The notes under the pieces: generated by a model
Seen by the model: the letters and a program-made list of their open reading frames with translations, nothing else
What the model was told of the DNA's origin: nothing
Databases searched by the model: none
Translations under genes and position numbers: made by a program
Assembly (NCBI GenBank): GCA_017505525.1
Contig: JAFVPB010000044.1
Location: forward strand, 12,662-76,661
Direction of reading: 5' to 3'
DNA length: 64,000 nucleotides
Source: Clostridia bacterium
Lineage (GTDB): Bacteria > Bacillota > Clostridia > UMGS1883
In this document: positions 1,880 through 16,663 of the stretch, piece by piece
How positions within the stretch are numbered: position 1 is the first letter of the stretch
Layout of the letters: the number at the start of each line of letters is the position of its first letter

Positions 1880-1920
1880 ATATGCTCCTCCCGTTTAGAT
1901 ATTATTCTATATGTTATTGC

Positions 1921-2100
1921 GACACATAAGGTTTAGATGCAAACCTTTCAAAGGCTTCTCCTCGAGGAGAGGCTCCGCCGCAGGCGGTGGTGAGGTGTAG
2001 ATTGCAAAAGTAATCATTATCTTTTCCACCTCATCCGAGTTGCTTCGCAACCCACCTTCCCCTCAAGGGGAAGGCTTTCTATTTTCGACATCTTTCAACA
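1921..2100. other. GC-rich run of short perfect palindromes (candidate structured RNA/leader between promoter module A and glsA)
   Basis: About 55% GC in a roughly 30% GC context. Consecutive perfect palindromes are ctcctcgaggag, ccgccgcaggcgg, ttgcttcgcaa, ccttcccctcaaggggaagg, cctttgaaagg and gtttgcatctaaac. On the plus strand the last hairpin is followed by ctttctatttt, which is terminator-like. On the minus strand the region lies between a TTGACA promoter module and the glsA start. Confidence 0.4.
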
Positions 2101-2124
2101 TATCCATATTACTCGTGTCAAGTC
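2084..2124 (-). promoter_or_regulatory. promoter/leader module copy A (TTGACA-N17-TGTTGAAAGATGTCGAAAAT), facing glsA
   Basis: The minus strand reads gacTTGACAcgagtaatatggatatgTTGAAaGaTGTCGAAaatag. It aligns with copies B and C (below) over the -35 hexamer and a direct repeat GTYGAA...GTCGAA spaced 10-11 nt. Confidence 0.45.
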
Positions 2125-2373
2125 AGGAGAACAGTGAATAATAAGAACCGTCACGAAATATAACGAAATCAAAGATTTCTATATTTCGGAGAACCTTGAT
2201 ACTCGCAAGCTCGTATTAGGACCTACTATTTCCCCCTTAATTTTTCACTGCATTTTTTCTAAACAAAATTCTTTAGAACCCGCGAGAATACTAGATTTTC
2301 TCGCTTCCGATGATATATGTAAATATAATAAATCGGCAAACTAATCTTTTAAATTGTGTGGACTTGACACGAG
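2112..2373. repeat. MITE-like element copy A (262 bp, 13-bp terminal inverted repeats CTCGTGTCAAGTC/GACTTGACACGAG) with ~74-bp internal hairpin insertion (2144-2217)
   Basis: Left end 2112-2124 and right end 2361-2373 are exact reverse complements. The interior is >90% identical to copy B except for an inserted segment (agaaccgtcacgaaatata...ctcgtatt) carrying its own 9-bp stem (cgaaatata/tatatttcg). Confidence 0.7.
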
Positions 2374-2413
2374 TTGAAACTTAACAAAAACAATCCTTGT
2401 GTCATGTCAACAA

Positions 2414-3370
2414 TTATTCACCTGCAATAACTTTCAAAATCTTACCATCTGATTTTCTAATAATTACAGACAAATCCCCGCCCGGAACAAGTTCTTTATA
2501 TCTGCTTACTATAAAACATTTCTCATCATATGTTTCATCAACTACAACAGTTGTTTTATCAATAAAATCAGCACCTTCAATTTGTAAAAAAACATCATCA
2601 GCTATAGCAATAGCCACCGCTTCACCTAACTGAAAATCTACACTTTCTCCTACCCAGCCTTCTTTTCCATAGTATCCTAATTCAAACGCATTATTTTGCA
2701 CACCTTTTTTCTGATCAGCAGTTGAATTATTTAAAGCATTATAAACTCTTAATATGGTTACAATCGCTTCTTCTACCGTGTAAGTATCTTTAGGTGCAAA
2801 CTTATTATTTCCTACGCCCTGCATAAACCCCAAATTACTTATTATCTGTATGGATGGTAAAGACCACTCTGCCATTTCATCAACATCATCATAGGAATAG
2901 TACATTTCCGTTGTAGGTAGCGGATGAACAATATTTATCATACGAACGATAATCGTTGCAGCTTCTTCTCGTGTTAGAGTTTCGTTTGGCGCAAATTCGG
3001 TTATAGATTTCCCCGCAACGATATTATGATTGTATAAATCATACACCGCATTATTAGTACAGTCATCAAAAGGTCGTTTTGCAAATGGTGCTATCGGTTG
3101 TGTTCCGCCTTTTGTCTCTTCATCATACCAATTTTCAAAATAATCAGTGGTTAATATTAAATTATATATCAATTCACAAAAAGTCTCACGCGAAATCGGT
3201 GCACTGTACAGATATGTTTCATCAACACTAATAAGACCTATTGCATCAGCAATTGAAATGCTGTTCACAGCCCAATCACTACAATCGTGCTCACTATTTG
3301 TATCTGCATAAACTACAAACGATGAGCAAATAAATGCTAAAGTGATAACCATTGCTAATATTTTTTTCAT
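2414..3370 (-). CDS. secreted protein with three N-terminal SLH (S-layer homology) repeats and a ~100-aa C-terminal domain of unknown function
   Basis: Signal peptide MKKILAMVITLAFICSSFVVYA. Three SLH-like repeats carry the W/F...G...(F)AP...I(T/S)REE(A/F) pattern (PISRETFCELIYN, TLTREEAATIIVRMIN, TYTVEEAIVTILRVYN). Confidence 0.7.
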   Translation of the reverse strand: MKKILAMVITLAFICSSFVVYADTNSEHDCSDWAVNSISIADAIGLISVDETYLYSAPISRETFCELIYNLILTTDYFENWYDEETKGGTQPIAPFAKRPFDDCTNNAVYDLYNHNIVAGKSITEFAPNETLTREEAATIIVRMINIVHPLPTTEMYYSYDDVDEMAEWSLPSIQIISNLGFMQGVGNNKFAPKDTYTVEEAIVTILRVYNALNNSTADQKKGVQNNAFELGYYGKEGWVGESVDFQLGEAVAIAIADDVFLQIEGADFIDKTTVVVDETYDEKCFIVSRYKELVPGGDLSVIIRKSDGKILKVIAGE

Positions 3371-3390
3371 AAAATATACCTTCTTTCTGC

Positions 3391-3433
3391 AGTATTCAGC
3401 ACCATTCGACAGGATTTTTACTCATGTCAAGTC
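3391..3433 (-). promoter_or_regulatory. promoter/leader module copy B facing the SLH gene
   Basis: The minus strand reads gacTTGACAtgagtaaaaatccTGTCGAATGGTGCTGAATACTgcagaaagaaggtatattttATG. The TTGACA lies inside the element-B terminal inverted repeat. The leader is homologous to copy C. Confidence 0.5.
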
Positions 3434-3606
3434 AGGAGAACAGTGAATAATAGGACCTACTATTTTTTTCCTTAATTTTTCACTGCTTTTTTCTGAACAA
3501 ATTTCTTTAGAACCCGCGAGAATACTGGATTTTCTCGCATCCGATAGTATATGTAAATATCAAAATCGGCAAACTAATCTTTTAAATTGTATTGACTTGA
3601 CACGAG
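3421..3606. repeat. MITE-like element copy B (186 bp, same 13-bp TIRs; CTCATGTCAAGTC ... GACTTGACACGAG)
   Basis: Near-identical to copy A minus the insertion. Internal 7-bp hairpin gcgagaa-N9-ttctcgc. No obvious target-site duplication. It lies between the SLH gene and the NDT-like gene. Confidence 0.7.
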
Positions 3607-3665
3607 AAAAACATATGAACTTGTAATCTTAGGATTTACCATGTTAATACAGCTTTTATAATCCA

Positions 3666-4574
3666 TTAGTTGTTTTCTGATACGCATCGTTCTGCAATTA
3701 TCGGTTCTATATCCTTAAACCCATTTTCAGATAACACATTTAGAAAATAGTTATAAATTCCTGGCACATCAAGTAGCCCTGACATTTTTATGTATATGTC
3801 AATCGTTTTTTCGATGAAATCAAATTTAACACTATCAACTGTTGCATCCGAATCAACCACTTCATGAACTTTTGAAAGCTGGCGTTGTAAAAATGGTCTA
3901 TTAGGTTTCTTTTCCGGTAATTCTGTAAATTTAAATGCCATCCGAGTAATTCGTGGTAACTCCTCTCGACTTTCCATAAACTGATGGTGAAAACGACGAT
4001 TTGAAATTGTTATTGCATCCTCAATGCGATTAAGTCTTTTTAAGATATATTCTAGTGGTTCTATACTTGACTCTGAATCTCTCTGCGCCTGTTGCAAAAT
4101 TGATGTGTCATGATTTAATTCTCCTAACACCTCATATATAGGTCCACTTTTTTTATCAAACGCTATTTCTTCTTCAGCCTTTTTAATGTCATCTCTTAAT
4201 TCTAGAACCCCTTTAGCATCGTTACAATAAAAAATAGTTCTTTGCATAATAATATCAGCAGGTAACGATGTCCCCTTTTCTGCGATCATAATTACTGGCA
4301 AACCAAGTGTATGACGAAAAGCTAGTTCGTACATAACATTAGGGTTTTTGTTAGTTAAGTTAGCTATAACCAACTCGTCTTGCGCTATCTCTGATATAAT
4401 TTGTTTTGTAATGGAACCAGGTTCGCTAATCTTATGCGATACAGAAATCTCATATTTAGATCCTAATGCTGGTACAATTGCAGCATCAATTATACCATCT
4501 ATATGCCTTCTTATTGGGTCTGCTTCATCTCCAATTGGCGTAATAATAAAACATCTTTTTTTATTTTCGCTCAT
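3666..4574 (-). CDS. cytoplasmic protein with N-terminal nucleoside 2-deoxyribosyltransferase-like (NDT/SLOG-type Rossmann) domain and ~170-aa helical C-terminal domain of unknown function
   Basis: 302 aa. The N-terminus CFIITPIGDE...DELVIANLT..NPNVMYELAFRHTLGLPVIMIAE matches the NDT-family pattern (beta1 with Gly, hydrophobic strand ending in (A/D)N, then the E-hGhA..hGhPVIhI catalytic-Glu segment). No signal peptide or TM segment. Product assignment is tentative. Confidence 0.45.
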   Translation of the reverse strand: MSENKKRCFIITPIGDEADPIRRHIDGIIDAAIVPALGSKYEISVSHKISEPGSITKQIISEIAQDELVIANLTNKNPNVMYELAFRHTLGLPVIMIAEKGTSLPADIIMQRTIFYCNDAKGVLELRDDIKKAEEEIAFDKKSGPIYEVLGELNHDTSILQQAQRDSESSIEPLEYILKRLNRIEDAITISNRRFHHQFMESREELPRITRMAFKFTELPEKKPNRPFLQRQLSKVHEVVDSDATVDSVKFDFIEKTIDIYIKMSGLLDVPGIYNYFLNVLSENGFKDIEPIIAERCVSENN

Positions 4575-4596
4575 GAAAATCTCCTCTTTTCTTTAG

Positions 4597-4640
4597 TAAT
4601 TCGACACCATTCAACATAATTCGACTTTTGTCAAGACAGG
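4597..4640 (-). promoter_or_regulatory. promoter/leader module copy C (solo TIR-like TTGACA + conserved leader) facing the NDT-like gene
   Basis: The minus strand reads cTTGACAaaagtcgaattaTGTTGAATGGTGTCGAATTACTaaagaaaagaggagattttcATG. The tgtcaagacagga segment resembles the element TIR tgtcaagtcagga. Confidence 0.5.
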
Positions 4641-4666
4641 ATTAAAAAATATTCTCTTTGCATATA

Positions 4667-5038
4667 TTACAATTTATTTCCGCATTTGGGGCAATAGTCG
4701 AACTCTTGTGTAGTTTGATATCCGCAAGTTTTACAAATTTTTACTGTTTCATATTCATTAACTATTGTTAAATCTGCATCGATAATAATAACGTCTTCCC
4801 CATTCTTTATCATTTTTCCTTTTTCTTTATCAAGAATAAAAATACTTTTGCAACAAGAAGACTGAGCATAATATTTTATATTCCATTTAAATATTGGTAT
4901 AAAAAATATACTCAGATACATATACGTCATAAAAACATTATATGTAGTATAGCTTCCGCAGTTTTTACAGATATTCATTCTTCCTGCATTTTGAATTAAT
5001 TCTTTATTTCCTTGTGATATTCCCATTATAAAAAACAT
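4667..5038 (-). CDS. small membrane-associated zinc-ribbon protein
   Basis: Two Cys pairs (CKNCGS...; CKTCG...CPKCGNKL) flank a hydrophobic segment. Last gene of the long minus-strand operon. Start may be an internal Met. Confidence 0.5.
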   Translation of the reverse strand: MFFIMGISQGNKELIQNAGRMNICKNCGSYTTYNVFMTYMYLSIFFIPIFKWNIKYYAQSSCCKSIFILDKEKGKMIKNGEDVIIIDADLTIVNEYETVKICKTCGYQTTQEFDYCPKCGNKL

Positions 5039-5040
5039 AA

Positions 5041-5265
5041 TTACTGCCTTTCAAATCTATATTCCTGCACAACATCAGGATACTTTTCTTTATCAACTTT
5101 TTCTAAAAACATATCAAGCGGTCTTATCCATAAGGATTCTTCCCCATACATTTGCCTGTAGACCACATAATCTTCGCCGGTTTCAGAATGTTTTGCAATA
5201 TTTTCGACTCTGTATAGATTACCTTTAAAGTGCTTATATATGGCGCCAATTTCAATTTTTCGCAT
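5041..5265 (-). CDS. DUF1653-like small protein
   Basis: 74 aa. GAIYKHFKGNLYRV...AKHSETGEDYVVYRQMYG...WIRPLDMF matches the DUF1653 pattern as I remember it. It lies 3 nt from the upstream gene. Confidence 0.55.
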   Translation of the reverse strand: MRKIEIGAIYKHFKGNLYRVENIAKHSETGEDYVVYRQMYGEESLWIRPLDMFLEKVDKEKYPDVVQEYRFERQ

Positions 5266-5281
5266 ATTAAAATACTCCTTA

Positions 5282-5968
5282 TTATTTAAAAAAACTTATT
5301 AAATATAAAACTCCCAGATGAAGAGGGTAGTAACTATAGAAAAAATATTTAAGATTGTATTTTCCTCTTGTTCCGTTGTATAAAAACAGTATTGGTAATG
5401 ACAATAGAGAAAAATACTGGACAAAGCTTCCCTGTGTGTTTAACGATAACAGAATGAGCATTATAGCTGTATTAACAATCTTTTTTTCTTTAGTTGGAGC
5501 AATATAAATTATAAATGGCATTATTATTCCTATAAATCCGTAATCAAAATAAATTTGATATATATCTAAAACATACACCATTATAAAAATAAGCAGCAAT
5601 ATTATAAAAAACTTAGGTTTTTCTTTTTTCTCTTCGTAAAATCTGGTGTAGGCACTGATAATTAATATTGAAAGAGAAAATGTTAAAAAGATATTTAAAT
5701 ACCAATCCCCTGTTGCAATTAAATAAACTGTCTGGCTTACAACTCCTACAAGAAAAACCTTCATAAAATATTTTTTTATATTTTTAGTGAAAAAACACCC
5801 TTCTGATATAGAATAGGCAAATATAGGAAAAGCAAGTCTTCCTATAATCCTGAAGGGTGTAAAATCGTTTAAAAGTATCAGACCAATATGGTCGATTGTC
5901 ATTGATATTATTGCTATGAGCTTAATTAAATTGTTGCTTAATCCTGATTTAAATGCATTCATAATCAT
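5282..5968 (-). CDS. TraX-family membrane protein
   Basis: NNLIKLIAIISMTIDHIGLIL is the TraX signature, and the protein is multi-pass hydrophobic. The start is taken at MIMNAF (5966-5968), which gives a TGATG overlap with the stop of the upstream J-domain gene; the longer track ORF (to 6013) is judged an artefact. Confidence 0.75.
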   Translation of the reverse strand: MIMNAFKSGLSNNLIKLIAIISMTIDHIGLILLNDFTPFRIIGRLAFPIFAYSISEGCFFTKNIKKYFMKVFLVGVVSQTVYLIATGDWYLNIFLTFSLSILIISAYTRFYEEKKEKPKFFIILLLIFIMVYVLDIYQIYFDYGFIGIIMPFIIYIAPTKEKKIVNTAIMLILLSLNTQGSFVQYFSLLSLPILFLYNGTRGKYNLKYFFYSYYPLHLGVLYLISFFK

Positions 5969-6639
5969 CAGCAGAACGGACAGCAAAGCCTGAAAAGACA
6001 AATTCCCCAGCAAAGCTTTTCAAGACCACTAATATCCATTCCATAACTTCTCCCTGTTTGAGTGTAGGTTTGGCCTGTTCGTGCCAAGAACATATAAACT
6101 TTTTGATATTCAGCATTGTTTGGCTCTATTCGTAAGGCTTGTTGAATCTGATTCAAAGCTGCTATAGTATTTCTTGTCCCATAGTTTGAAAGAGCGCTTA
6201 AATAGTACCATCGTGCATTTCTTTTAACACTATCTATGCGATTAAGTAAAATAAGAGCGTTCTGATAATTTTTCATATTAATTTCAGAAATAATCTTTAT
6301 TATTTCGGGGCTATCGTCTGGTAAAATATGCGGTGTTGACGGTATTTCCTGATAGAAATTCCCGAATATATCGTTGAAATCAAAACCACCATAAGAATAC
6401 CCCCTGTATCCCCCATACTGGCTGCTTTGCTGCTGTTGATATTGCTGCCTTGAATGTTTTTCAGGATTCATCAGCATATCATATGCTTCATTAACCTCGC
6501 TCATTTTTTCAGCTATACCGGGTTCATCAGGGTGCAAATCAGGATGATATTCTTTTGCTTTTTTTCTGTATGCTTTTTTTATTTCATCGGGTGTAGCTCC
6601 CGGAGAAATTCCAAGAACTTTATAAGGATCTGTTACCAT
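5968..6639 (-). CDS. J-domain (DnaJ-like) co-chaperone with Q/G/Y-rich linker and TPR-like C-terminal region
   Basis: DPYKVLGISPGATPDEIKKAYRKKAKEYHPDLHPDE...MSEVNEAYDML is a canonical J domain with an HPD motif. Start taken at MVTDPY (6639) with RBS AAAGGAAAG; the track ORF is extended upstream to 6693. Confidence 0.8.
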   Translation of the reverse strand: MVTDPYKVLGISPGATPDEIKKAYRKKAKEYHPDLHPDEPGIAEKMSEVNEAYDMLMNPEKHSRQQYQQQQSSQYGGYRGYSYGGFDFNDIFGNFYQEIPSTPHILPDDSPEIIKIISEINMKNYQNALILLNRIDSVKRNARWYYLSALSNYGTRNTIAALNQIQQALRIEPNNAEYQKVYMFLARTGQTYTQTGRSYGMDISGLEKLCWGICLFRLCCPFC

Positions 6640-7459
6640 TAATGGCTTTCCTTTCTTTTTTTGCTTTTGCTGAATTGTATTTTTGCCAAACACCAGAATA
6701 AATTGTATTTCTTAATATATTTTCATTTTGAACAAGCGGAAGCTTTTCAAATATTTCAGCGGCTTCACCTATTAGAACCTTTAATATATTTTCAATTTCA
6801 CTTTCAGATATATCTAAAGTAAGAAACGGATTATAGTTTCTTTTTTTTTGGTCTTTTTCTATATCAGCGGCTGCATCAATTAAATATATAAATTTTCCTA
6901 ACGAGTAACCAAAATTATAAACATCATTTTCCCAATTATCGCTTTTGCATCTGAATATTTCCCCAAGGATTTTGCCGAAACAATCGGAAGATTCATCGGG
7001 GGTACCATTTCTGTTTTCTATTGCCGACAAATCAGATATAAGACTTTCTATTTTAGATATTTTATCGGGATATTTTTCTTTCAGTAATTTAATTCTTGAC
7101 TTAATAAGCGATGAAAAAGAAAACATTAAAATATTTTTATCATCATGCCAGTCGTCAATACTTTTATAGTATGCTAAAACAATATTCATATCTGCAGCAT
7201 ATTCTATAAATTCGTTTTTTATATAAGATTGCGATTTTTTAGGATGAATAAGACATTTTTTATTTATTTGTTTCTGTTGTGGTTCGTAAAGCGAAGAGAG
7301 AAACAGCGCAAGAAACGTCATATCATAGTTTAAAGTTAATCTTGATAATCCACCGTTTGCTTCTCCGAGTGCTCGGCATATACCGCAATAAAACTGATTA
7401 TATGTGCTTTTATCTTCCGCACTTAATACATGAGGGTTAATTAAAACGTTTCCGAACAT
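6620..7459 (-). CDS. conserved hypothetical protein with N-terminal Y-C-G-I-C motif (possibly a DUF family co-occurring with J-domain proteins)
   Basis: 279 aa, no TM segment, and I recognise no catalytic motif. It is tightly packed between the zinc-ribbon gene and the J-domain gene. Confidence 0.55.
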   Translation of the reverse strand: MFGNVLINPHVLSAEDKSTYNQFYCGICRALGEANGGLSRLTLNYDMTFLALFLSSLYEPQQKQINKKCLIHPKKSQSYIKNEFIEYAADMNIVLAYYKSIDDWHDDKNILMFSFSSLIKSRIKLLKEKYPDKISKIESLISDLSAIENRNGTPDESSDCFGKILGEIFRCKSDNWENDVYNFGYSLGKFIYLIDAAADIEKDQKKRNYNPFLTLDISESEIENILKVLIGEAAEIFEKLPLVQNENILRNTIYSGVWQKYNSAKAKKERKAINGNRSL

Positions 7460-7473
7460 AACATCTTTCCTTT

Positions 7474-7887
7474 TCAGCTTTTACGGATTAAAACCTTTCC
7501 ACAAGCATTACAGGTTATGTTAATTTTGCCTTTTCCTTTCGGCACTCTGAGATATGCTCCGCACGAGCATCTGAAATACTTGTGTGTTTTTCTGTCGTGC
7601 CATTTTCTTTTTTGAACATTAATAAACTGCTTTGGTTTTTTTATAAATTTTTGAAAAGCCCAAAGCTCTTTTTGTCTTTTATATATTTTTTTTGAAAAAG
7701 TTCTGAAAAGAGCCCATATAATACAAAAATAATACAAGTACAACAGAATACGAAGATTGATAAATAAAGCAAGAACCCAAAAAAGAATACCTGTCCACAA
7801 TAAAAATTTATTTAAATCATCATATCCGTATCGGCCTACCATAAAATTTCGGAATTTCCAAGCCAATCGATTTAAAAACGAACGCAT
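7474..7887 (-). CDS. membrane protein with C-terminal zinc ribbon
   Basis: Two hydrophobic helices followed by CSCGAYLRVPKGKGKINITCNACGKV. Its start abuts the stop of the AI-2E transporter gene (7887/7888). Confidence 0.55.
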   Translation of the reverse strand: MRSFLNRLAWKFRNFMVGRYGYDDLNKFLLWTGILFWVLALFINLRILLYLYYFCIIWALFRTFSKKIYKRQKELWAFQKFIKKPKQFINVQKRKWHDRKTHKYFRCSCGAYLRVPKGKGKINITCNACGKVLIRKS

Positions 7888-9024
7888 TTATTCTGCACTC
7901 TCCTCCAAAATTTCTGCAATCTTTTCTTTATTATAAACATCTTCTTTAACAATAGTAAATATTACTGCAATTAAAGGAATAAAGAAAAGAATACCTATAA
8001 CTCCAAATAATTTACCACCTATCATGGCAGCAATAAGTACATAAATAGGATTAACACCAACCTTACTTCCTACAACTCTTGGATATATAAACTGGTTTTC
8101 AATGAACTGTACAACCCCGTAAACTATCATACATTTCAGTGCTGTTGCCGGGCTTATTAAAAGTATTAAAAGAGTGCTTACCGAAAACGATATAAATGCA
8201 CCAACATAAGGAATAATAGCACAAACGGCCGTAAGCACAGCAACGAGAGCTGCATAAGGTATTCTGAATATTAAGAATGCAATAAACATAAGCATACCCA
8301 GAATGAGCGCTTCAGCACACTGTCCTGTTAAAAACTTTGAAAAAGATTTATTGAAAAGTCGACAAAAACGAATTGAATTATTGGCAAAACTGGGTTTGCA
8401 ATATGTTGTTACCACCATTTTGCAGTGCCTTGACAGGTGTTCTTTACCAAGTATAGTATAGATGGATACAATTATTGAAAAGATTGCTGTAAGTGTAAAG
8501 CTTATTGTTGATGAAACTGCGCTGACAACTCCCCCAAGGAAATTAAATGCCCCGTTTGAAATGTTTTGAATCATCTTTTCTACATTCATTTCAGCAAAAA
8601 GATTTTCAATCCAAGTATAATCAATATTATGGCTTGTCAAATATTCAGCCCAAACTGGAATTCTTTGTTGAATTTTATAATACAAGTCTTTTATAGAAAC
8701 CGTAATCTGAGGAATAATCCATATAAATACAAGCGCTATAATCAGAAGGATACAAATAACAGTAATCAGATAACTTATACCGTGATACATTTTATCCGAC
8801 ATTTGCTTTTTATTTTTCCTGAATATCTTTCTCAATATTCTTTCAACGCCTGTAACGGGAACATTAATGAAGATAGATAATATTCCTCCGATAATTATAG
8901 GCATTATTAGAGAAATTATTTTTTCAAGAAAAGTGCCTGCTGCTTCTAAATTCATTAGGATTGCAAACAAAACCACGCCGCTTACTGTAATCCAAAAAGC
9001 TTGTTTCATTTTTTTATCCATCAC
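7888..9024 (-). CDS. AI-2E family transporter (UPF0118/PerM-like)
   Basis: 378 aa, 8 TM segments, C-terminal FIENQFIYPRVVGSKVGVNPIYVLIA signature of the AI-2E family. Confidence 0.8.
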   Translation of the reverse strand: MMDKKMKQAFWITVSGVVLFAILMNLEAAGTFLEKIISLIMPIIIGGILSIFINVPVTGVERILRKIFRKNKKQMSDKMYHGISYLITVICILLIIALVFIWIIPQITVSIKDLYYKIQQRIPVWAEYLTSHNIDYTWIENLFAEMNVEKMIQNISNGAFNFLGGVVSAVSSTISFTLTAIFSIIVSIYTILGKEHLSRHCKMVVTTYCKPSFANNSIRFCRLFNKSFSKFLTGQCAEALILGMLMFIAFLIFRIPYAALVAVLTAVCAIIPYVGAFISFSVSTLLILLISPATALKCMIVYGVVQFIENQFIYPRVVGSKVGVNPIYVLIAAMIGGKLFGVIGILFFIPLIAVIFTIVKEDVYNKEKIAEILEESAE

Positions 9025-9038
9025 TGTTTCCTCCTTTT

Positions 9039-10388
9039 TTATTTCAACAAATCACAGATTGCATCAATATTTTTCTTTAGTGTAAGACAACCAATTCCAT
9101 TGTCGGCCTTTACATAGTAATTTCTTTCATTGTAATTATAATATTTGAAGGTTTTCTTTTGATTGTTATTTAAATCAAAGGTTATTGTACATTGCTCTTT
9201 TCCTGTAGGAACAAAATCATCATCTATATCTGTTGCAATGACGCCTATAATTGCCTGATACAATTTCTTAAAGTTTTCTTCGCTTATATCTTTGTTGTTT
9301 ACATAGTATTTAGCTTTATCATTTTGAATATCGCCCTTAACGCTGATAACGTCAGTTTGACTTTGGAATGAAAATTCAACTGAATTAACATCTGATAAGT
9401 TTACTAAATGTATAAATCTATCGATATATTCATCAGAGTTTGCGTTAACAACTTTTTCATAAAAAGGACAATCAGCTAAATATACGACCTTTCTATCGTT
9501 ATACATAATATAGACCAATCCATCATCATTCTTATTGCCTAAGGAAATTGTATGAGTTCCATTACCATCTGTTACTGTTAATTTATAAGGATTATTAAAT
9601 CCGTAAGAAGTAATCTCATTCATATTTTCTGTAACAATTTCCTGCGCAGTTATACTACTGATAGTTTCAAGAAGAGCATTCGTTCTGTCGGTTGATGCTA
9701 CTACACCTTTATAAGGATAGAGAATTTTATAGTTTCTAATAGAATTTGAAGGATCTTTTTTTTCTTTTTCAAATTCTATATCTATAATTTTATTATTGCC
9801 CCTGCTTATAGCAACTCTTTCTATTGTTTCTGGCGCAATACTACATACATCAAGACTGCGGTATTGGCTTGGGTCAACTTTAAAGAATTCTGCAGAACTT
9901 TTGCTAATTGAGGATAATCGACCTGTGGCTTCATTATAAGCATAATACTCGCCTTCTACACCGGTGCTGTTACCCAAAATAATTTTTGTTGATTTTCCGT
10001 CTTTCTCTTTAATAACAACATAAGTACTACTGTCTTTAATACCATATTCCAGAAGACTGGTATCTTCAACTTTTATATTTTGGTTTTCTATTATGTATGA
10101 AAAACTGTGTATTGCTCTTGTAAGAAGTTCGGGGTCAATAATTTTACTTTCGTACCCTGATATTGTTTTATTTTCCCCATTGCGAACAGTATAGCTATTG
10201 CCATCATAATAGAATTCTATACTTGCGATGTTATCTGTTTCGGTTTTAAACAAATAATATGTTTCATCATCGGTCTCAGTTGTGATGATTTCTGTTTCGG
10301 GAGTCCATTTAACAGCAAAAAAGTATAAACCAAATAATACAACAAGAACAATAAAACCTGAAACTAATCCTTTAACTCTTTTTTTCAT
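9039..10388 (-). CDS. DUF4340-domain protein (partner of GldG-like ABC auxiliary component)
   Basis: 449 aa with an N-terminal TM anchor and a beta-rich exported body. It is positioned directly after the GldG-like gene, with the stop and start sharing nt 10388. Confidence 0.65.
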   Translation of the reverse strand: MKKRVKGLVSGFIVLVVLFGLYFFAVKWTPETEIITTETDDETYYLFKTETDNIASIEFYYDGNSYTVRNGENKTISGYESKIIDPELLTRAIHSFSYIIENQNIKVEDTSLLEYGIKDSSTYVVIKEKDGKSTKIILGNSTGVEGEYYAYNEATGRLSSISKSSAEFFKVDPSQYRSLDVCSIAPETIERVAISRGNNKIIDIEFEKEKKDPSNSIRNYKILYPYKGVVASTDRTNALLETISSITAQEIVTENMNEITSYGFNNPYKLTVTDGNGTHTISLGNKNDDGLVYIMYNDRKVVYLADCPFYEKVVNANSDEYIDRFIHLVNLSDVNSVEFSFQSQTDVISVKGDIQNDKAKYYVNNKDISEENFKKLYQAIIGVIATDIDDDFVPTGKEQCTITFDLNNNQKKTFKYYNYNERNYYVKADNGIGCLTLKKNIDAICDLLK

Positions 10389-11797
10389 TATTTATGTCTC
10401 CTTATAAGCCAGATAACCAATCCGCCGATGAGTATTACTAATGGAATTATATATTGAAGTAAAATTGCATATCCGATAACCTGTTGCTGAGTCATAACCA
10501 TTCTTTCAGGACTTATCTGTTTTGCCCTGATGCCTGTGTCGGTTGTTGCTCCTCCAAGATAATTTATAACATTAAGAACAAAGTCTCCGTTAAGATATGC
10601 TCCCTCTGTCAACACTCCTGATGTTTCTAACGCAGCAAGAGAACCTATAAATACTATAGCTGAATCTTCAGGCTGATATTTTTCTGATATAGCGGCAATT
10701 GTCAACGGACCTTCTATATCAGTGCTTTCTTTTTCAAGAGTAACTGACTTTAAATTTTTCTTTCCGTAAGAAGCTTCGCTTGTAAACAAAAGCTTTTTCG
10801 CTTCGGAATTATTTTTTGTTGTAACTAAAGATACGCTTGTAGAATCAGGCATAGCTAAAAGAGAGCTTGAATCCTTTATTTTTTCAGTAATTGCATGCTC
10901 TGCAAGTTCAGGAATTGGTATAGGAACGTTATTACCTGCTCCCATTGCTCTTTCACTATCAGATTCAATAACATAATCATAGTTCAGCTCAAATCCCCAC
11001 TCGCTGAGAAAACTGCTGATTCTATCTAAATTGTCTGCTTCCGGGACAGGTACAAAAATGTACTTTCCGCCGTTATCCAAGTAGGTATCAAGAGCTTTAA
11101 TTTCATCTTCTGTAAAATCAACATCGGGAGCTAAAGTGATAAGCATAGATGCATCTTCAGGTATTGTATTATTTGAAAGATTTATGTTGTCGCACTTATT
11201 TCCTTCATCGCGAAGAAAATTTTTAAAGTTTGTACCATCGTATTCGTTATGCCCTTGTGTAAAATAAATATTTGATTGTGAAACTTTTCCTGTAACAATC
11301 ATTATTGCATCTGTAACCTTTTTCTCCATATCGATCTGCACTGTACCAGAATAGCTGTTTTGCTGATAAAGTTGTTCAAAAGGTATAACCTTATAATTAT
11401 CCCCGCATTCAATAATAATTGACCCTATTGCAGCCTGATTATCACCATCGTTGTATTTTTGCATAAAAGCAGGATTTTCATATGGATTAATATATTCCAC
11501 GAAAAATTCATCACTTAAAGCAATATATTTATCTAAATATTCTTTGATATAGTCAATATATTCACTCTGAGTGTTTTCATCAATTAAAGCATATGCCTTA
11601 ACCTCTTTTTCAAGATTTTTCATAATCTCGTTTGTTTGTTCTGAAAATTTATAAACTTTATCCCTCGTTAAATCTATGCTAAGGGAAGATTTGTCTGCAA
11701 TTATAGATACAAACAAATTTAAAACAAGAACACAAACAATAACAACACAAATTGTTATAATGGATGTTAATCCGAATTTTAATTTTCTCTTATTCAT
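10388..11797 (-). CDS. GldG-like ABC-transporter auxiliary component (ABC_transp_aux family)
   Basis: 469 aa with an N-terminal and a C-terminal TM anchor and a large extracytoplasmic domain. It follows an ABC-2 permease, as is typical of the family. Confidence 0.75.
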   Translation of the reverse strand: MNKRKLKFGLTSIITICVVIVCVLVLNLFVSIIADKSSLSIDLTRDKVYKFSEQTNEIMKNLEKEVKAYALIDENTQSEYIDYIKEYLDKYIALSDEFFVEYINPYENPAFMQKYNDGDNQAAIGSIIIECGDNYKVIPFEQLYQQNSYSGTVQIDMEKKVTDAIMIVTGKVSQSNIYFTQGHNEYDGTNFKNFLRDEGNKCDNINLSNNTIPEDASMLITLAPDVDFTEDEIKALDTYLDNGGKYIFVPVPEADNLDRISSFLSEWGFELNYDYVIESDSERAMGAGNNVPIPIPELAEHAITEKIKDSSSLLAMPDSTSVSLVTTKNNSEAKKLLFTSEASYGKKNLKSVTLEKESTDIEGPLTIAAISEKYQPEDSAIVFIGSLAALETSGVLTEGAYLNGDFVLNVINYLGGATTDTGIRAKQISPERMVMTQQQVIGYAILLQYIIPLVILIGGLVIWLIRRHK

Positions 11798-11808
11798 ATT
11801 ATCTCTCC

Positions 11809-12513
11809 TTAGCTGAATCTACGCTTATCTATTACTGAAACAGTAAGAAATAAAAACACAAATATAAAACTTAAATAATAAATAATGTTTTCTATGTTTA
11901 AAACACCATTCTGGAAATCGCCGTAACGAGCAAGCAAAGCAAACCAACCGATAACTTTTTGTGCCACGGGATTTTGAACACTTGATTGGAACCAGTTTAT
12001 AAAATAAATAAGTAATAAACTTGCAAAGGTAAGCACGCCTGCAATCATTTGACTTTCAGTAAGAGCTGAAATAAATATGCCAACTGAAATGAAAGCTCCC
12101 CATAAAAGTATAAACCCGATATACGAACTGATTACCTCGCTTAATGCAGGGTTGCCATATATAAACATTATTGCAGGGAATATAAAACTGACAAGGATTG
12201 TAATTCCAAATACAGCCATAGCTGCAAGATACTTTCCAAGAACTATTTCTGTTATGCTTACAGGAGCTGACATTAGAAGCTGGTCGGTTTTCTTCCCGCG
12301 CTCTTCAGCTAAAAGTCGCATTGTTAGAAGAGATACCAGGAACAGATAAATAACATTTATATTTGAAAACATAATAGAAATATCTGCTTGCTGAGAGAAT
12401 AAAATTCCACTTGCAAAAAACATCGAAGCCAGAGCCATGAAAACTCCTACAAATATGTATCCTATCGGTGAGAGAAAATAGCTTTTAAATTCTTTTTTAA
12501 ATATTGCTATCAT
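11809..12513 (-). CDS. ABC-2 family permease (GldF-like)
   Basis: 234 aa, 6 TM segments. Overlaps the ATPase gene by 17 nt. Confidence 0.8.
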   Translation of the reverse strand: MIAIFKKEFKSYFLSPIGYIFVGVFMALASMFFASGILFSQQADISIMFSNINVIYLFLVSLLTMRLLAEERGKKTDQLLMSAPVSITEIVLGKYLAAMAVFGITILVSFIFPAIMFIYGNPALSEVISSYIGFILLWGAFISVGIFISALTESQMIAGVLTFASLLLIYFINWFQSSVQNPVAQKVIGWFALLARYGDFQNGVLNIENIIYYLSFIFVFLFLTVSVIDKRRFS

Positions 12514-13498
12514 TTTCTGTTACCTCCTGTTCTTCTTTTTCTTCTTCATAAATCTTGCTATTGGTAAGTTTTATAAATATTTCTTCAAGCGTGAGAAGTG
12601 CACTTTTAAATTCAGTAATCGCAATACCATTTTTACCAAAGGCTTCTGTTAGTTGCATCGATATATCGCTTTCCGGCTTTCTTTCCAAGAGTATTTCTGC
12701 TTCGCTGTCGTTAATAAAAGTGGTATTAATATTTACGATTTCATCAATTGAAGACAATATATCAAGCGCTTTTTGGGTATCTCCTTTAAGTTTGAGAATA
12801 TATTTGTCTTTTCCACCCGTTGCTTCTTCAAGACCCTTTAACGTGTTTTGTGCAACAATTTTTCCGTGAGATATAATAGTAACCCTGTCGCACACGGCAC
12901 TTACTTCCTGAAGAATATGAGTGCTGAGAATGATGGTTCTTTCTTTTCCTATTTCCTTTATTACGTTTCTTATTTCAATTATTTGCTTTGGATCAAGCCC
13001 AACAGTGGGTTCGTCAAGAATGAGAACCTCTGGATCACCTATAAGAGCTTGAGCAAGCCCAACTCTTTGTTTATATCCCTTTGAAAGGTTTTTAATCATA
13101 CGATTCTTCATGTCGCTTATTTTTACAAGCTCCATAATTTTTTCTATATGTTCTTTTTTATTGTTTTTAACTTTTTTTAAGTCATAAACAAAGCTTAAAT
13201 ATTCCCAGACCTTCATATCGAAATACAACGGAGGATTTTCCGGAAGATATCCTATTTTGCTTTTTACTATTTTTGGATTTTCCAAAACATCACAGCCACA
13301 AACATTAACAGTACCTCCGCTTGCACTTATGCATCCGCAGATTATATTCATAGTAGTGCTTTTCCCTGCGCCGTTGGGTCCTAAAAAGCCCATAATTTCT
13401 CCGTGTTTGACATTAAAAGAAATATTATCTACTGCTTTATTTGCACCATAATTTTTAGATAGATTAATAATTTCTAATGCATTGTTTACAGTTTCCAT
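12497..13498 (-). CDS. ABC transporter ATP-binding protein (GldA-like)
   Basis: Walker A GPNGAGKST, signature LSKGYKQRV, Walker B ILILDEP. Confidence 0.9.
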   Translation of the reverse strand: METVNNALEIINLSKNYGANKAVDNISFNVKHGEIMGFLGPNGAGKSTTMNIICGCISASGGTVNVCGCDVLENPKIVKSKIGYLPENPPLYFDMKVWEYLSFVYDLKKVKNNKKEHIEKIMELVKISDMKNRMIKNLSKGYKQRVGLAQALIGDPEVLILDEPTVGLDPKQIIEIRNVIKEIGKERTIILSTHILQEVSAVCDRVTIISHGKIVAQNTLKGLEEATGGKDKYILKLKGDTQKALDILSSIDEIVNINTTFINDSEAEILLERKPESDISMQLTEAFGKNGIAITEFKSALLTLEEIFIKLTNSKIYEEEKEEQEVTENDSNI

Positions 13499-13533
13499 AC
13501 TTAACCTCCTGAGTGCAATAATATATTATTTTA

Positions 13534-13561
13534 ATTATACTACAAATGTATCTTGTTGTCA
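13534..13561 (-). promoter_or_regulatory. sigma-A-type promoter for the long minus-strand operon (TGACAA-N16-TATAAT)
   Basis: Minus strand reads aaTGACAAcaagatacatttgtagTATAATtaaaa, about 40 nt upstream of the ABC ATPase start, which carries RBS GGAGG. Confidence 0.5.
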
Positions 13562-13592
13562 TTAGCTATTTGTAAATTTTTTTAAAATAAAA

Positions 13593-13609
13593 ACGAGGGA
13601 TTCCCTCGT
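13593..13609. terminator. bidirectional intrinsic terminator (acgagggattccctcgt + flanking A/T runs)
   Basis: Perfect 7-bp stem directly after the SBP gene stop, flanked by aaaa on one side and tttttatttt on the other. Confidence 0.8.
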
Positions 13610-13611
13610 TT

Positions 13612-14514
13612 TTATTTTAAACCTTCTTTAAGACTTTGATAATTGTTTTCCATTAATTCTAAATACGTTATTCCTTTTTTCAACTGTTCATCCGTAACAC
13701 TGTGGCACGAATGCAGCATGAGCTTTTTAGCTCCAGTTTCTCCCGATATAGTATCAGCAAGTTTTTGATTTGACGTTTCAGTATAAAATACGACATTTAT
13801 ATTTTCATTTTTAATTGTTTCTATAAGCTGTGATATCGTGGCTGCACTCGGTTCACTTTCTGAAGAACACCCAGGAAAAGCGGAAAAGTATTCCAAATTA
13901 TATTCCTCAGCTAAATATTTAAAAGGAAATCTGTCAGCAAAAACTATTTTCTTATTATTATTTTTTGTTAATCTTTCAAATTTTTCATCAAGTTTATCTA
14001 ATTTATTAGAATAGATTTCTTCGTTTTTTTCATAAAAATCTTTGTTTTTGGGATCCATTTGTGCGAGCAAGTTTGCAATTGCTTCAATAATATCTTCTGC
14101 ATTTTCAGGAGATGTCCATATATGTTCGTCCACAGAATATATATCATGATGGTTTTCTTTTATTGTATCAACAACATTTATTGCAGACATAATGCGTGTA
14201 TTGCTTTTATTTTCATCTTTAGATATAGCTTCAACCCACGGATCGGCACTTCCGCCAATATTTATAAATAAATCGCTTTCGTTTATTTTTATAATATCCT
14301 GAACTGTAGGCTCATAAGAATGAGCTTCTCTGCCGGTAGGTAAAAGCATATCTACTTCTGCCCTGTCTCCTGCAATTTGTTTGGCAAAATCATAAAGCGG
14401 AAAAATAGTTGTAACAATTTTCAGTTTATTATTTTGAGTTGTTTCATCGTTTCCAGCACAGCCTGGAATAACTAAAATAATAATTGAAAGTATAAAAGAT
14501 AAAATTTTGCGCAT
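13612..14514 (-). CDS. metal (Zn/Mn-type) ABC transporter substrate-binding lipoprotein (ZnuA/AdcA/TroA family)
   Basis: Lipobox LVIPGCAG and family-typical His/Asp ligand positions. No cognate permease or ATPase is adjacent, so it is an orphan SBP. Confidence 0.8.
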   Translation of the reverse strand: MRKILSFILSIIILVIPGCAGNDETTQNNKLKIVTTIFPLYDFAKQIAGDRAEVDMLLPTGREAHSYEPTVQDIIKINESDLFINIGGSADPWVEAISKDENKSNTRIMSAINVVDTIKENHHDIYSVDEHIWTSPENAEDIIEAIANLLAQMDPKNKDFYEKNEEIYSNKLDKLDEKFERLTKNNNKKIVFADRFPFKYLAEEYNLEYFSAFPGCSSESEPSAATISQLIETIKNENINVVFYTETSNQKLADTISGETGAKKLMLHSCHSVTDEQLKKGITYLELMENNYQSLKEGLK

Positions 14515-14537
14515 ATTTTCACCTCACAAATTTAATT

Positions 14538-14552
14538 TGATAATCATTCTCA
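14538..14552. promoter_or_regulatory. Fur-family (candidate Zur) operator, 7-1-7 inverted repeat TGATAATcATTcTCA
   Basis: One mismatch to the Fur 7-1-7 consensus TGATAAT-N-ATTATCA. It lies 24 nt upstream of the SBP start and in the divergent region shared with the COG0523 gene. Confidence 0.5.
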
Positions 14553-14599
14553 TATTTATATTACATTTACTTGATCTGATTGTCAAGTTGTTTTTATTA

Positions 14600-14628
14600 T
14601 TGACTAAAAGCTATAAAAGTATTATAAT
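14600..14628 (+). promoter_or_regulatory. sigma-A promoter TTGACT-N17-TATAAT for the COG0523 gene
   Basis: Near-consensus hexamers with 17-nt spacing, 25 nt upstream of the start codon. Confidence 0.6.
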
Positions 14629-14652
14629 CTCATAAGTAAGGAAGTGTTATAT

Positions 14653-15702
14653 ATGACGAAAATCGATATTTTTTCAGGGTTTCTTGGAGCAGGAAAAACA
14701 ACTTTGATAAAAAAGCTTATTAAAGAAGCCTATAATGGAGAAAAAATTGTTCTTATTGAGAACGAGTTTGGAGAAATCGGTATAGACGGTGGGTTTATGG
14801 AAGATGCCGGAATAGAAGTTACTGAAATGAATTCAGGATGTATATGCTGCAGTCTTGTGGGGGATTTTGGCAAAGCCCTTACCAAAGTTCTTGAAGAATA
14901 TAATCCTGACCGTATTTTAATAGAGCCTTCCGGTGTTGGTAAGCTCAGTGATGTTATTCGCGCTGTGAAAGATGCCGAGTGTAAAGGTGCCTCGCTTAAC
15001 AGCTACTGTGCAGTTGCAGACGCAAAAAAATGTAAGATGTATATGAAAAATTTTGGTGAATTTTTTAATGACCAGATTGAAAGCGCTTCTTGCATTGTTT
15101 TAAGCCATACAGATGATCTTAATGAAGAAAAAATCGAAGAATGTATTAAATTACTTCGCACAAAGAATGATAAAGCACAAATCGTTGCTTCTCCCTGGGA
15201 TTCGCTATGTGGAAAAGCAATCCTCGAGGCTATAGAAAACACCCACACACTTGAAGACGAAATTAATTCGCTTAAAGAAGAACATCTTGAACATCATCAT
15301 CATGAGCACTGTAAATGTCATGAACATGAACATCACCATAATCATGAGTGCCATTGTCATGAGCATCACCACGACCATGATTGTGGTTGCCATGACCACA
15401 ATCATGAACATGAGCATCATCACCATGCAGACGAGGTATTTACAAGTTGGGGTGTTGAAACAGCAAAATCTTTTACAGAAGCTGAATTAAAGAACATTCT
15501 TTCCGCGTTTGAAGACAGTGAAAAATTTGGTACAGTTTTGCGTGCAAAAGGAATTATTAAAGGAGAAACTGACTGGTTGTATTTTGATTATATTCCATCA
15601 GAAATTGATATCCGCCATGGAAGCAGCGCACCAATAGGTAGAATTTGCGTTATCGGCGCTCAATTAAATAAAAATATTTTAAACGAGACTTTTGGAGTTT
15701 AA
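14653..15702 (+). CDS. COG0523-family GTPase zinc metallochaperone (CobW/YciC/ZigA-like) with His/Cys-rich insert
   Basis: Walker A GFLGAGKTT, ENEFG, metal-binding GCICC, and a His-rich stretch EHHHHEHCKCHEHEHHHNHECHCHEHHHDHDCGCHDHNHEHEHHHH (15286-15440). Start taken at MTKIDIF. Confidence 0.85.
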   Translation: MTKIDIFSGFLGAGKTTLIKKLIKEAYNGEKIVLIENEFGEIGIDGGFMEDAGIEVTEMNSGCICCSLVGDFGKALTKVLEEYNPDRILIEPSGVGKLSDVIRAVKDAECKGASLNSYCAVADAKKCKMYMKNFGEFFNDQIESASCIVLSHTDDLNEEKIEECIKLLRTKNDKAQIVASPWDSLCGKAILEAIENTHTLEDEINSLKEEHLEHHHHEHCKCHEHEHHHNHECHCHEHHHDHDCGCHDHNHEHEHHHHADEVFTSWGVETAKSFTEAELKNILSAFEDSEKFGTVLRAKGIIKGETDWLYFDYIPSEIDIRHGSSAPIGRICVIGAQLNKNILNETFGV

Positions 15703-15718
15703 TCTGGAGGAATTGACA

Positions 15719-16663
15719 ATGAAAAATATTCCCATCTATCTATTCGTAGGTTTTCTTGAATCAGGAAAAACACGTTTTATTCAGGATACACTGTGCGATA
15801 TTCGTTTTAATAACGGAGAAAAAACATTATTACTTGTTTGCGAAGAAGGTATCGATGAATATGAACCAAGCTTATTTTCAGGAGATAATGTTTATATAGA
15901 AACAATCGATAGTATTGATTTTCTTACGCCAAAGCACCTTTCATCCTTACAGGAAAAAAGTAATGCAGAGCGTGTTATAATTGAATATAATGGTATGTGG
16001 CTTCTCACAGAATTGCTCAACAATCTTCCTAAGAAGTGGCAGGTGGTACAAACAATGATGTTTGCAGATGCCAATACTTTTATAAATTATAATGCAAATA
16101 TGCGTAATCAAACAGTTGATAAACTCAGAGTTTCTGAACTTGTTGTGTTTAACAGAATGGATAAATCTATTGACAAAATGGAACTTCACAAAATTGTTAG
16201 AGGCGTAAACCGCAGGGCTGATATTGCATATGAGTATGCTGATTCCTCCGTGGAATATGATGATATAATAGATCCACTTCCCTTTGACATTGAAGCAGCG
16301 CTTATAGAAATTAAAGATACAGATTATGCTATATGGTACAGAGATTTACTTGAGGAAAGCGATAAATATGATGGTAAATCTGTTAAATTCAGAGCAATAG
16401 TCGCTTCAGACAATCGTCTTCCCGATAATGTTTTTGCAGCCGGTCGCCACGTTATGACTTGTTGCGTAGATGACATTGAATATATGCCTATAATTTGCAT
16501 TTCTAAAAGCAACCATAATCTTAAAAGCCGCGACTGGGTGATGTTGCGCGGTAAAATAAAGGTTGAGTATTCTAAGTTTTATAGAGGAAAAGGTCCTGTA
16601 ATATATCTTGAAGATGTTATTCTCACATCACCACCTCAAGAGGAGTTAGCCACTTTTTATTGA
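15719..16663 (+). CDS. second COG0523-like GTPase paralog (divergent; CxCC replaced, C-terminal TCC motif)
   Basis: Walker A GFLESGKT is present but ENEFG is changed to CEEG. It lacks the His-rich segment and has C-terminal MTCCVDD. Start taken at MKNIPIY with RBS TGGAGG; the track ORF is extended to 15692. Confidence 0.65.
   Translation: MKNIPIYLFVGFLESGKTRFIQDTLCDIRFNNGEKTLLLVCEEGIDEYEPSLFSGDNVYIETIDSIDFLTPKHLSSLQEKSNAERVIIEYNGMWLLTELLNNLPKKWQVVQTMMFADANTFINYNANMRNQTVDKLRVSELVVFNRMDKSIDKMELHKIVRGVNRRADIAYEYADSSVEYDDIIDPLPFDIEAALIEIKDTDYAIWYRDLLEESDKYDGKSVKFRAIVASDNRLPDNVFAAGRHVMTCCVDDIEYMPIICISKSNHNLKSRDWVMLRGKIKVEYSKFYRGKGPVIYLEDVILTSPPQEELATFY

Follow-up and report, generated by a model that had tools for sequence, protein, structure and literature searches.

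A gene cluster on the minus strand of a Clostridia metagenome-assembled genome (MAG), running from position 13498 down to position 4667 of a 64,000-nucleotide stretch of contig JAFVPB010000044.1 (the window, whose numbering is used throughout), raises the question of whether eleven tightly packed genes, one of them encoding a J-domain co-chaperone, make up a single machine. A preliminary description of this DNA had proposed that they could, as one module for chaperone-assisted assembly or export. The answer reached here is very probably no: the cluster is a composite transcription unit, a lineage-specific patchwork, inside which a DUF5685 gene and the J-protein gene directly downstream of it form the conserved core. 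Taken as a whole, the best explanation of the locus combines this mosaic and this core with an enzymatic function of DUF5685 and with prenylation by DUF5685 of the cysteine-rich tail of the J protein, and its probability is put at about 0.5.

The open reading frame (ORF) check of the window recovered the eleven minus-strand ORFs where they had been placed before, and Pfam and NCBIfam scans called ABC_tran, ABC-2 permease, ABC_transp_aux/DUF7088 (GldG-like), DUF4340, AI-2E, DnaJ, TraX, DUF1653 and Zn_ribbon_15, so that the catalogue of co-directional genes and families in the preliminary description stands. The first four genes form a cassette encoding an ATP-binding cassette (ABC) ATPase (12497..13498, GldA-like; PF00005, TIGR03522), an ABC-2 permease (11809..12513, GldF-like), an ABC_transp_aux/DUF7088 auxiliary protein (10388..11797, GldG-like) and, as the final member, a DUF4340 protein (9039..10388). 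The Gld likeness is a distant one, as all three NCBIfam equivalog cut-offs are missed (328.5 vs 402.6 bits for GldA, 135 vs 288.5 for GldF and 59.7 vs 389.85 for GldG).

This cassette is absent from a close relative, L081, whose J protein is 91% and whose DUF5685 is 78% identical to that of the window. Its gene order is ZnuA→AI-2E→ZnR1→DUF5685→J→TraX→DUF1653→Zn_ribbon_15, and the hairpin and the −35 and −10 regions of the window align with the L081 DNA directly upstream of AI-2E, while the AI-2E ribosome-binding sites of both also align. With matches on both sides, the 4.5-kb block of ABC, permease, GldG-like and DUF4340 genes occupies the 5' leader of the unit that follows, with the promoter at one edge and the AI-2E ribosome-binding site exactly at the other. 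A further close relative, L164, carries all 11 of the 11 genes in identical order; absence in L081 and presence in L164 thus point to an insertion/deletion polymorphism among close relatives. The same four-gene cassette also occurs in unrelated surroundings, without a J or DUF5685 gene, in L165 and L166 (DUF4340 homologues 41% and 33% identical). The ABC–permease–GldG-like–DUF4340 block is therefore an autonomous cassette whose presence varies among close relatives, and the promoter very probably drives a unit of AI-2E, ZnR1, DUF5685, J, TraX, DUF1653 and ZnR2, with the cassette lying in between.

The promoter announced earlier ahead of the ABC ATPase gene is present: a sigma-70-like ATGACA-17-TATAAT sequence at 13562-13534 (minus strand) is the top-scoring site of the scan, with 11/12 matches. 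A hairpin with a 19-bp stem at 13581..13621, which overlaps the znuA stop codon and is kept in L081, reads as the terminator that closes upstream znuA and would shield the cluster from transcription that arrives from upstream. The 14-nt gap ahead of AI-2E shows no promoter-like sequence, and no terminator was seen by the scan 3' of ZnR2, which leaves the 3' end of the transcription unit undefined; terminator-like sites are not enriched in the window (8 vs 6.0±2.4 in shuffles). Reading of the sequence also confirmed the junctions described before, that is, the 17-nt overlap of the ABC ATPase and permease genes (12497-12513), the base 10388 shared by the GldG-like and DUF4340 genes, the abutting AI-2E and ZnR1 genes (7888/7887) and the TGATG at 5968 that joins the J stop to the TraX start. 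Three starts in this arrangement are corrected. The J gene begins at ATG 6639 instead of GTG 6693, because its homologues begin M-x-x-DPYxVLG, and it overlaps the DUF5685 gene by 20 nt; TraX begins at ATG 5968 within the TGATG, giving 228 aa, the same as in relatives; and AI-2E probably begins at ATG 9021, giving 377 aa as in relatives.

Such packing is the norm in this window. Same-strand gaps have a median of 12 nt and 65% of them are of 20 nt or less, and the minus-strand runs comprise 14, 24 and 11 genes, the run of 14 (962-14514) being that of the cluster itself. The packing is consequently real, and it is no evidence of coupling. Co-transcription of all eleven genes as a single unit is plausible from the sequence, and the earlier claim of one polycistronic operon is backed by the good promoter, the upstream znuA hairpin and the order repeated in L164, whereas the packing adds nothing and the 3' end is not defined.

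The conserved part of the cluster was delimited by two surveys. A scan with a DUF5685 alignment, covering one genome per species of the GTDB, returned at least 600 stretches, 584 of 600 encoding a DUF5685 relative, and the best 80 loci were used; they come from Lachnospiraceae, Oscillospiraceae, Christensenellales-like MAGs, Peptococcaceae, Dehalobacter, Acetivibrio and Eggerthellaceae. In all 80 of these species loci tblastn finds a J homologue as the next gene downstream of DUF5685, in the same orientation, with a gap of at most 100 nt in 75. The reciprocal search of metagenomes was seeded with the tetratricopeptide repeat (TPR) region plus tail of the J protein and covered the R[ND][AG]RWYYLS subgroup only, since a broad alignment of J C-termini lacked a stretch conserved enough for the scan and a narrower subfamily alignment was used. 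It gave 80 loci; DUF5685 is directly upstream of J in 73 of them and the remaining seven end at a contig edge. Four loci with the pair, L012, L046, L050 and L078, are binned as Alistipes, Flexilinea, Alistipes communis and Prevotella, and they are likely mis-binned contigs and not genuine finds in Bacteroidota or Chloroflexota, because their sequences resemble Clostridial ones (40-45% identity to the query).

Two further families recur beside the pair. ZnR1, the membrane zinc-ribbon protein, is found in 57/80 species loci (immediately upstream of DUF5685 in 38, right after J in 7, and after J and another gene in 10) and upstream in 40/80 metagenome loci. An unbiased clustering of neighbouring ORFs yielded, as the sole other family in more than 10 of the 80 loci, an Hsp70 of about 590 aa; two other clusters above this level are antisense ORFs over the DUF5685 gene, artefacts of the greedy ORF caller. 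The Hsp70 gene is adjacent in 17/80 species loci and directly downstream in 64/80 metagenome loci. From these adjacency counts, DUF5685→J is the obligate unit, which ZnR1 and the DnaK paralogue frequently join. The DUF5685→J module is conserved across Clostridia and Eggerthellaceae and is the sole evolutionarily conserved unit in the cluster.

The other genes of the cluster are neighbours by lineage. Searches by tblastn with all window proteins found no homologue of TraX, DUF1653, ZnR2, AI-2E, GldG or DUF4340 in the 80 species loci. The AI-2E transporter (7888..9021) lies upstream of ZnR1 in L081, L082, L083, L084 and L164 and in none of the 80 species loci, and it is a module neighbour only in the wider clade of the window. 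TraX (5282..5968) and ZnR2 (4667..5038), a Zn_ribbon_15 protein unrelated to ZnR1, accompany the J gene only in close relatives of the window; between them lies the DUF1653 gene (5041..5265). The one DUF1653 gene met elsewhere, in L132 (61% identity), is about 2.1 kb downstream of J, after a J–Hsp70 pair, and is probably there by chance. A second promoter-like site, TTGAAA-18-TATAAT (11/12), at 5025-5054 (minus strand) overlaps the annotated ZnR2 start, and an alternative start of this gene, M21 at 4978 (MNICKNCGSY…, with GGAAGA ahead), would yield a shorter zinc-ribbon protein from its own transcript.

These counts bear directly on the idea that the eleven genes are one system, in which the J protein would chaperone the assembly of, or the export through, the ABC and AI-2E transporters, with help from TraX, DUF1653 and the zinc-ribbon proteins. 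Although the genes are tight and co-directional, share a single good promoter and keep their order in L164, the cassette is missing from the collinear L081 and autonomous in L165 and L166, and across the 160 loci fetched through DUF5685 or J, TraX, ZnR2, GldG and DUF4340 were never found near J, and DUF1653 and AI-2E once each; as tight packing is the norm here, this idea is very unlikely. The export module of the preliminary description finds no support in this comparison. The conservation check that the same description had called for gave a positive result for ZnR1–DUF5685–J, which recurs widely; TraX is absent from the 160 loci. Its remark that no system of this composition had been described is correct, for no other reason than that chance neighbourhood brought these genes together.

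In the outgroup loci L082 and L083 (DUF5685 54% identical) the order is AI-2E→ZnR1→DUF5685→J→HSP70→FtsH, which means that in the clade of the window TraX–DUF1653–ZnR2 fill the slot of the DnaK paralogue. After the module, L082 carries at 9589-14001 the DnaK paralogue, then FtsH and then a Zn_peptidase_2 gene. This order, which is not general among the 80 species loci, hints at a link of the module to membrane-protein quality control.

TraX itself belongs to Pfam PF05857 (128.3 bits vs a cut-off of 25) and falls short of the F-type equivalog TIGR02755 (49.3 vs 149.35). TraX is an acyltransferase family, and the F-plasmid TraX acetylates pilin. It has thus to be considered whether, in the lineage of the window, TraX acylates the cysteine tail of the J protein and has taken over its membrane anchoring, as the overlap of the J stop with the TraX start at 5968 and the position of TraX in the slot of the DnaK paralogue might suggest. 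Overlapping genes are common in the window, the equivalog cut-offs are missed and TraX is absent from the other 160 loci, which makes this proposal highly improbable.

The protein at the centre of the conserved module is DUF5685 (6620..7459), which had been described by a CGIC motif and which Pfam identifies with E 1.4e-91. The match to PF18937 scores 307.2 bits against a cut-off of 26.7 and extends over positions 1-271 of the 272 in the model. At 50% identity the family falls into 6291 clusters, with proteins of 265-300 aa that almost always match from residue 1 (MFGY…), and no domain fusions were found in it; they are stand-alone proteins. Long representatives had been considered as fusions and were rejected as low-complexity insertions, run-ons or mis-called starts. 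The AlphaFold model of DUF5685 is confident, with a predicted local distance difference test score (pLDDT) of 90.4 and a predicted template modelling score (pTM) of 0.89, and has the all-alpha isoprenoid-synthase fold of the superfamily of trans-isoprenyl diphosphate synthases, or trans-IDS. The lower ranks of its fold matches hold MoeN5, Ord1 and CqsB4, which are prenyltransferases acting on non-isoprenoid acceptors, together with squalene/phytoene synthases and class I terpene synthases. At the sequence level no such kinship is seen, as DUF5685 has no match to Pfam polyprenyl_synt at E ≤ 0.01, and a profile of the DUF5685 alignment gave only chance-level matches against PDB sequences, with no trans-IDS chain at E ≤ 10.

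The alignment and the model place two acidic motifs in this fold. The first, DDWHD (D102-D106; 7142..7156), stands at the C-terminal end of helix 83-107; D102, D103, W104 and D106 are invariant, and the motif corresponds to the first DDxxD of the superfamily, which closes helix D there, an equivalence by helix order and not by residue superposition. The second, D195-x3-D199-x3-D203 (6851..6877), lies on helices 177-205, with its three aspartates invariant (D195-A-x-x-D199-x-x-x-D203). Three helices separate the two motif-bearing helices in the model, and the trans-IDS fold has the same arrangement of two metal- and diphosphate-binding motifs with three helices between them. In its i, i+4, i+8 spacing the second motif is like the NSE/DTE triad of class I terpene synthases. 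The invariant C25, C28, C69 and H72 (7244..7387), which reach from helix 1 to the beta-hairpin 63-81, form a putative Cys3His site that probably binds a structural zinc. From its fold and motifs, DUF5685 is probably, if by no wide measure, a Mg2+/diphosphate-dependent enzyme of the trans-IDS fold.

The partner of this protein is the J protein (5968..6639), a co-chaperone with a J domain, a TPR domain and a cysteine-rich tail. Its J domain scores 77.6 bits against PF00226 and carries the HPD motif at residues 32-34 (H32-D34; 6538..6546), which 73 of 74 homologues keep; next comes a disordered linker rich in Q, G and Y, and this part of the preliminary description was accurate. The match to the class A DnaJ equivalog TIGR02349 (83.2 vs 377.2 bits) is limited to the J domain and linker. 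Pfam finds only weak, sub-threshold TPR matches, beyond which the protein has the helical-repeat fold of TPR domains. The tail comprises residues 203-223 (LEKLCWGICLFRLCCPFC; 5971..6033) and is predicted, with moderate confidence, to be helical. Among homologues its median length is 21.5 residues, with 29% Cys and virtually no Asp or Glu, and the last 30 residues hold 4-10 cysteines, vs 0.28 in the rest of the protein. The consensus reads [LM]CxxLC[LI]A[NQ]LxCN[LF]CCGG, and C-x3-C-x5-C occurs in 48/74; Cys is the final residue in 50/74 and lies within the last four residues in 61/74. There is no conserved CaaX box, and the endings are heterogeneous (xxCC in 16, xCxC in 11 and CxxC in 6 of 74). 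A transmembrane helix was considered for the tail and ruled out, as it is too short and interrupted by polar residues.

ZnR1 (7474..7887) matches no Pfam family. It has a conserved MxGRxGxD N-terminus and a two-helix transmembrane hairpin, and its C-terminal part has a net charge of +18 to +21 and ends in a CxxC…CxxC ribbon in 52/53 homologues. The adjacent Hsp70 is of the DnaK type. In most of these Hsp70s (loci L001-L163, e.g. L035 11723-13498) the chain stops soon after a conserved LExSSAH segment and lacks the acidic DADFEE-type tail of housekeeping DnaK. A canonical-looking acidic tail is kept in L017, L040 and L073, where the Hsp70 is upstream of DUF5685, and also in L089 and L134. No EEVD-like TPR-binding motif was found at the C-termini of the adjacent Hsp70s, and PADLOC defence models gave no match for ZnR1, DUF5685, the J protein, TraX, DUF1653, ZnR2 or the adjacent Hsp70.

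The model proposed for the module is that DUF5685 would transfer a prenyl group to cysteines in the C-terminal helix of the J protein encoded downstream, and that this modification would tether the co-chaperone, next to ZnR1, to the membrane on its cytoplasmic side. There, the HPD-bearing J domain would recruit DnaK or a dedicated paralogue, and the TPR domain would hold clients or partners. The trans-IDS-like enzymes ComQ, PalQ and ChrPC prenylate peptides (PMC13290415), and by analogy DUF5685 may act likewise on the polypeptide of the adjacent gene, adjacency and the predicted fold being what is established. The J tail is pointed to as putative substrate by its cysteine content, its C-terminal Cys and the 20-nt overlap of the DUF5685 and J genes. 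Prenylation of this tail, producing a lipid-anchored co-chaperone that recruits DnaK, is a tentative proposal, and it is somewhat more doubtful still that DUF5685 founds a bacterial family of protein S-prenyltransferases on the trans-IDS fold, lipidating J tails in Clostridia and Coriobacteriia.

Several points weigh against the explanation as a whole. On the enzyme side, the characterised trans-IDS-like peptide prenyltransferases all modify Trp and not Cys (PMC13290415), and neither endogenous protein S-prenylation nor an endogenous protein farnesyltransferase is known from bacteria (PMC8669142). DUF5685 lacks a canonical DDxxD as its second acidic motif, and the four protein ligands of its Cys3His site suggest a zinc with a structural and not a catalytic role. 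The tail cysteines, with their semi-regular spacing, could equally serve metal binding or helix packing. On the side of the locus, redundancy among gut contigs means that many of the 80 metagenome loci are not independent observations, at least 14 species show no detectable ZnR1 within ±10 kb, and the window has no Hsp70 gene and no adjacent DnaK paralogue. A caveat on the promoter is that promoter-like sites are not enriched over shuffled sequence (77 vs 63.7±8.1).

The obligate and translationally coupled pairing of DUF5685 and J would also be expected if DUF5685 were a client or regulated partner that makes or binds an isoprenoid small molecule or lipid, with the J-TPR protein and DnaK controlling its folding, stability or membrane delivery. 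The cysteine tail would then be a mere membrane-affine or metal-binding anchor, and the relation could be likened to that of the DnaJ-like plant protein ORANGE and phytoene synthase or to HscB/HscA/IscU. The invariant Asp motifs, which imply real catalysis on a diphosphate substrate, and the genuine TPR protein-binding domain of the J protein fit with this, and a chaperone acting on an enzyme of isoprenoid-synthase fold has a precedent in ORANGE, which acts on phytoene synthase (PMC12063368). What this alternative leaves unexplained is the cysteine-rich tail in every partner J protein; moreover, no other isoprenoid-pathway gene recurs in the neighbour clustering of the 80 loci, and the confident model of DUF5685 shows a soluble single domain and nothing that would mark it as a difficult client. 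It is a possible but improbable account. An E. coli IspA probe found no polyprenyl synthase in the collected loci.

The cysteines themselves suggest another alternative, a chaperone station for metal or redox stress, in which the tail, the ZnR1 ribbon and the Cys3His site of DUF5685 would bind or sense Zn, Cd, Cu or Fe-S, DUF5685 would be a scaffold, and the J protein would bring DnaK to membrane proteins that have suffered damage, as has been suggested for E. coli HscC/DjlB/DjlC in Cd2+ tolerance. The semi-regular spacing C-x3-C-x5-C-x2-C falls on one face of the predicted helix, but hydrophobic residues (L, F, M, I) stand between the cysteines, and not Gly or polar ones as in typical metal-binding motifs. 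The cluster adjoins znuA and two CobW/COG0523 genes, assigned through the annotation of relatives, but this zinc-gene neighbourhood is lineage-specific. The HscC/DjlC precedent (PMC8215388) and the FtsH gene after the DnaK paralogue in L082 also favour such a station, while the six invariant Asp in a synthase fold argue against a mere scaffold, and the proposal is rather unlikely. Prenylation of the J tail by DUF5685 remains the preferred explanation.

Both flanks of the cluster carry features of their own. Downstream, a 302-aa gene at 3666-4574 (minus strand) matches, over residues 16-115, the PADLOC model PDLC00733 of a TIR effector (E 1.4e-7) and nothing significant in Pfam; it is co-directional and follows ZnR2 after 92 nt, with no terminator between them. 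As L081 and L164 carry a DinB-like IMS gene at this position, it may be an inserted defence-type gene. Upstream, a zinc-homeostasis neighbourhood extends over 13612-16663, beginning with the gene of a ZnuA-like binding protein (13612-14514, minus strand). Two plus-strand ORFs face it, 14644-15702, with a long His/Cys-rich stretch, and 15692-16663; their counterparts in L081 and L164, where the arrangement is kept, are annotated cobW/CobW_C and DUF1980_C, the annotation being that of the relatives. A T-box leader (RF00230) at 16716-16960 on the plus strand, scoring 111.8 bits against a gathering threshold of 93, is the sole Rfam match in the 64-kb window.

The eleven-gene "system" is thus ordinary genome mosaicism, and what deserves attention is the smaller module of three to four genes within it. 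Its gene pair, often extended to a triad or tetrad, is conserved in many anaerobes from the gut and the environment. The fold assignment makes DUF5685 a testable enzyme hypothesis, for which the cysteine-tailed J protein is the obvious candidate substrate. If it is true, a synthase-fold enzyme would lipidate protein cysteines in bacteria, which would be the first endogenous protein cysteine prenylation there, an independent bacterial counterpart of farnesylated DNAJA/Ydj1 and of the palmitoylated cysteine-string protein, and a specialised Hsp70/J-protein system that joins HscA/HscB and HscC/DjlC as the third. Otherwise, the pair remains a clean entry to the role of a dedicated DnaK paralogue in Clostridia. 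In the literature, DUF5685 was found only as a name in one paper's list, with no functional description, and the literature searched, which did not include the J-protein survey of Barriot et al. 2020, yielded no description of a bacterial cysteine-tailed J protein, a Clostridial DnaK paralogue or a DUF5685–J pairing.

Set against known systems, the conserved module is a specialised Hsp70/J-protein system whose synthase-fold partner has no precedent. The exporter cassette that accompanies it in the window resembles the GldA/GldF/GldG gliding-motility transporter in combining an ATPase, an ABC-2 permease and an ABC_transp_aux auxiliary protein. That transporter belongs to Bacteroidota whereas the host of the window is a Clostridia MAG, and the window cassette lies far below the equivalog cut-offs and adds DUF4340 as a fourth gene.

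As for enzymes, comQ is located directly upstream of comX and the two genes overlap. DUF5685 shares with ComQ–ComX, PalQ and ChrPC an isoprenoid-synthase-fold enzyme with Asp-rich motifs that is encoded just upstream of a candidate acceptor polypeptide. It differs from them in having no sequence-level match to polyprenyl synthase models, and its presumed acceptor is a 220-aa co-chaperone, and not a secreted pheromone or ribosomally synthesised and post-translationally modified peptide, with Cys and not Trp as the presumed nucleophile. ORANGE, a DnaJ-family chaperone functionally tied to an isoprenoid-synthase-fold enzyme, lacks a J domain and uses a zinc-finger domain. The ORANGE–phytoene synthase relation is one of chaperone and client, not necessarily of enzyme and substrate, and it is not operon-encoded.

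Among lipidated co-chaperones, Ydj1/DNAJA is farnesylated at a CaaX box, and the cysteine-string protein DNAJC5 is palmitoylated on a cysteine string that is central in the protein. They share with the J protein of the module an N-terminal J domain with HPD and a cysteine-bearing segment, which is lipidated there and putatively so here. The homology is limited to the J domain, and the tail of the module is C-terminal and without a fixed CaaX box; bacteria are not known to have CaaX prenyltransferases or DHHC enzymes. The nearest bacterial comparison is E. coli HscC, an Hsp70 paralogue with the tail-anchored J proteins DjlB and DjlC, whose clients are unknown (PMC8215388). In both systems a specialised Hsp70 gene stands beside that of a class-C J protein whose C-terminus targets, in the module putatively, the cytoplasmic membrane. 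In the module this C-terminus is a cysteine-rich helix of about 21 residues, whereas DjlB and DjlC have a transmembrane anchor; its J protein has a TPR domain, its partners are DUF5685, which is obligate, and ZnR1, and its Hsp70 is of the DnaK type and not always adjacent.

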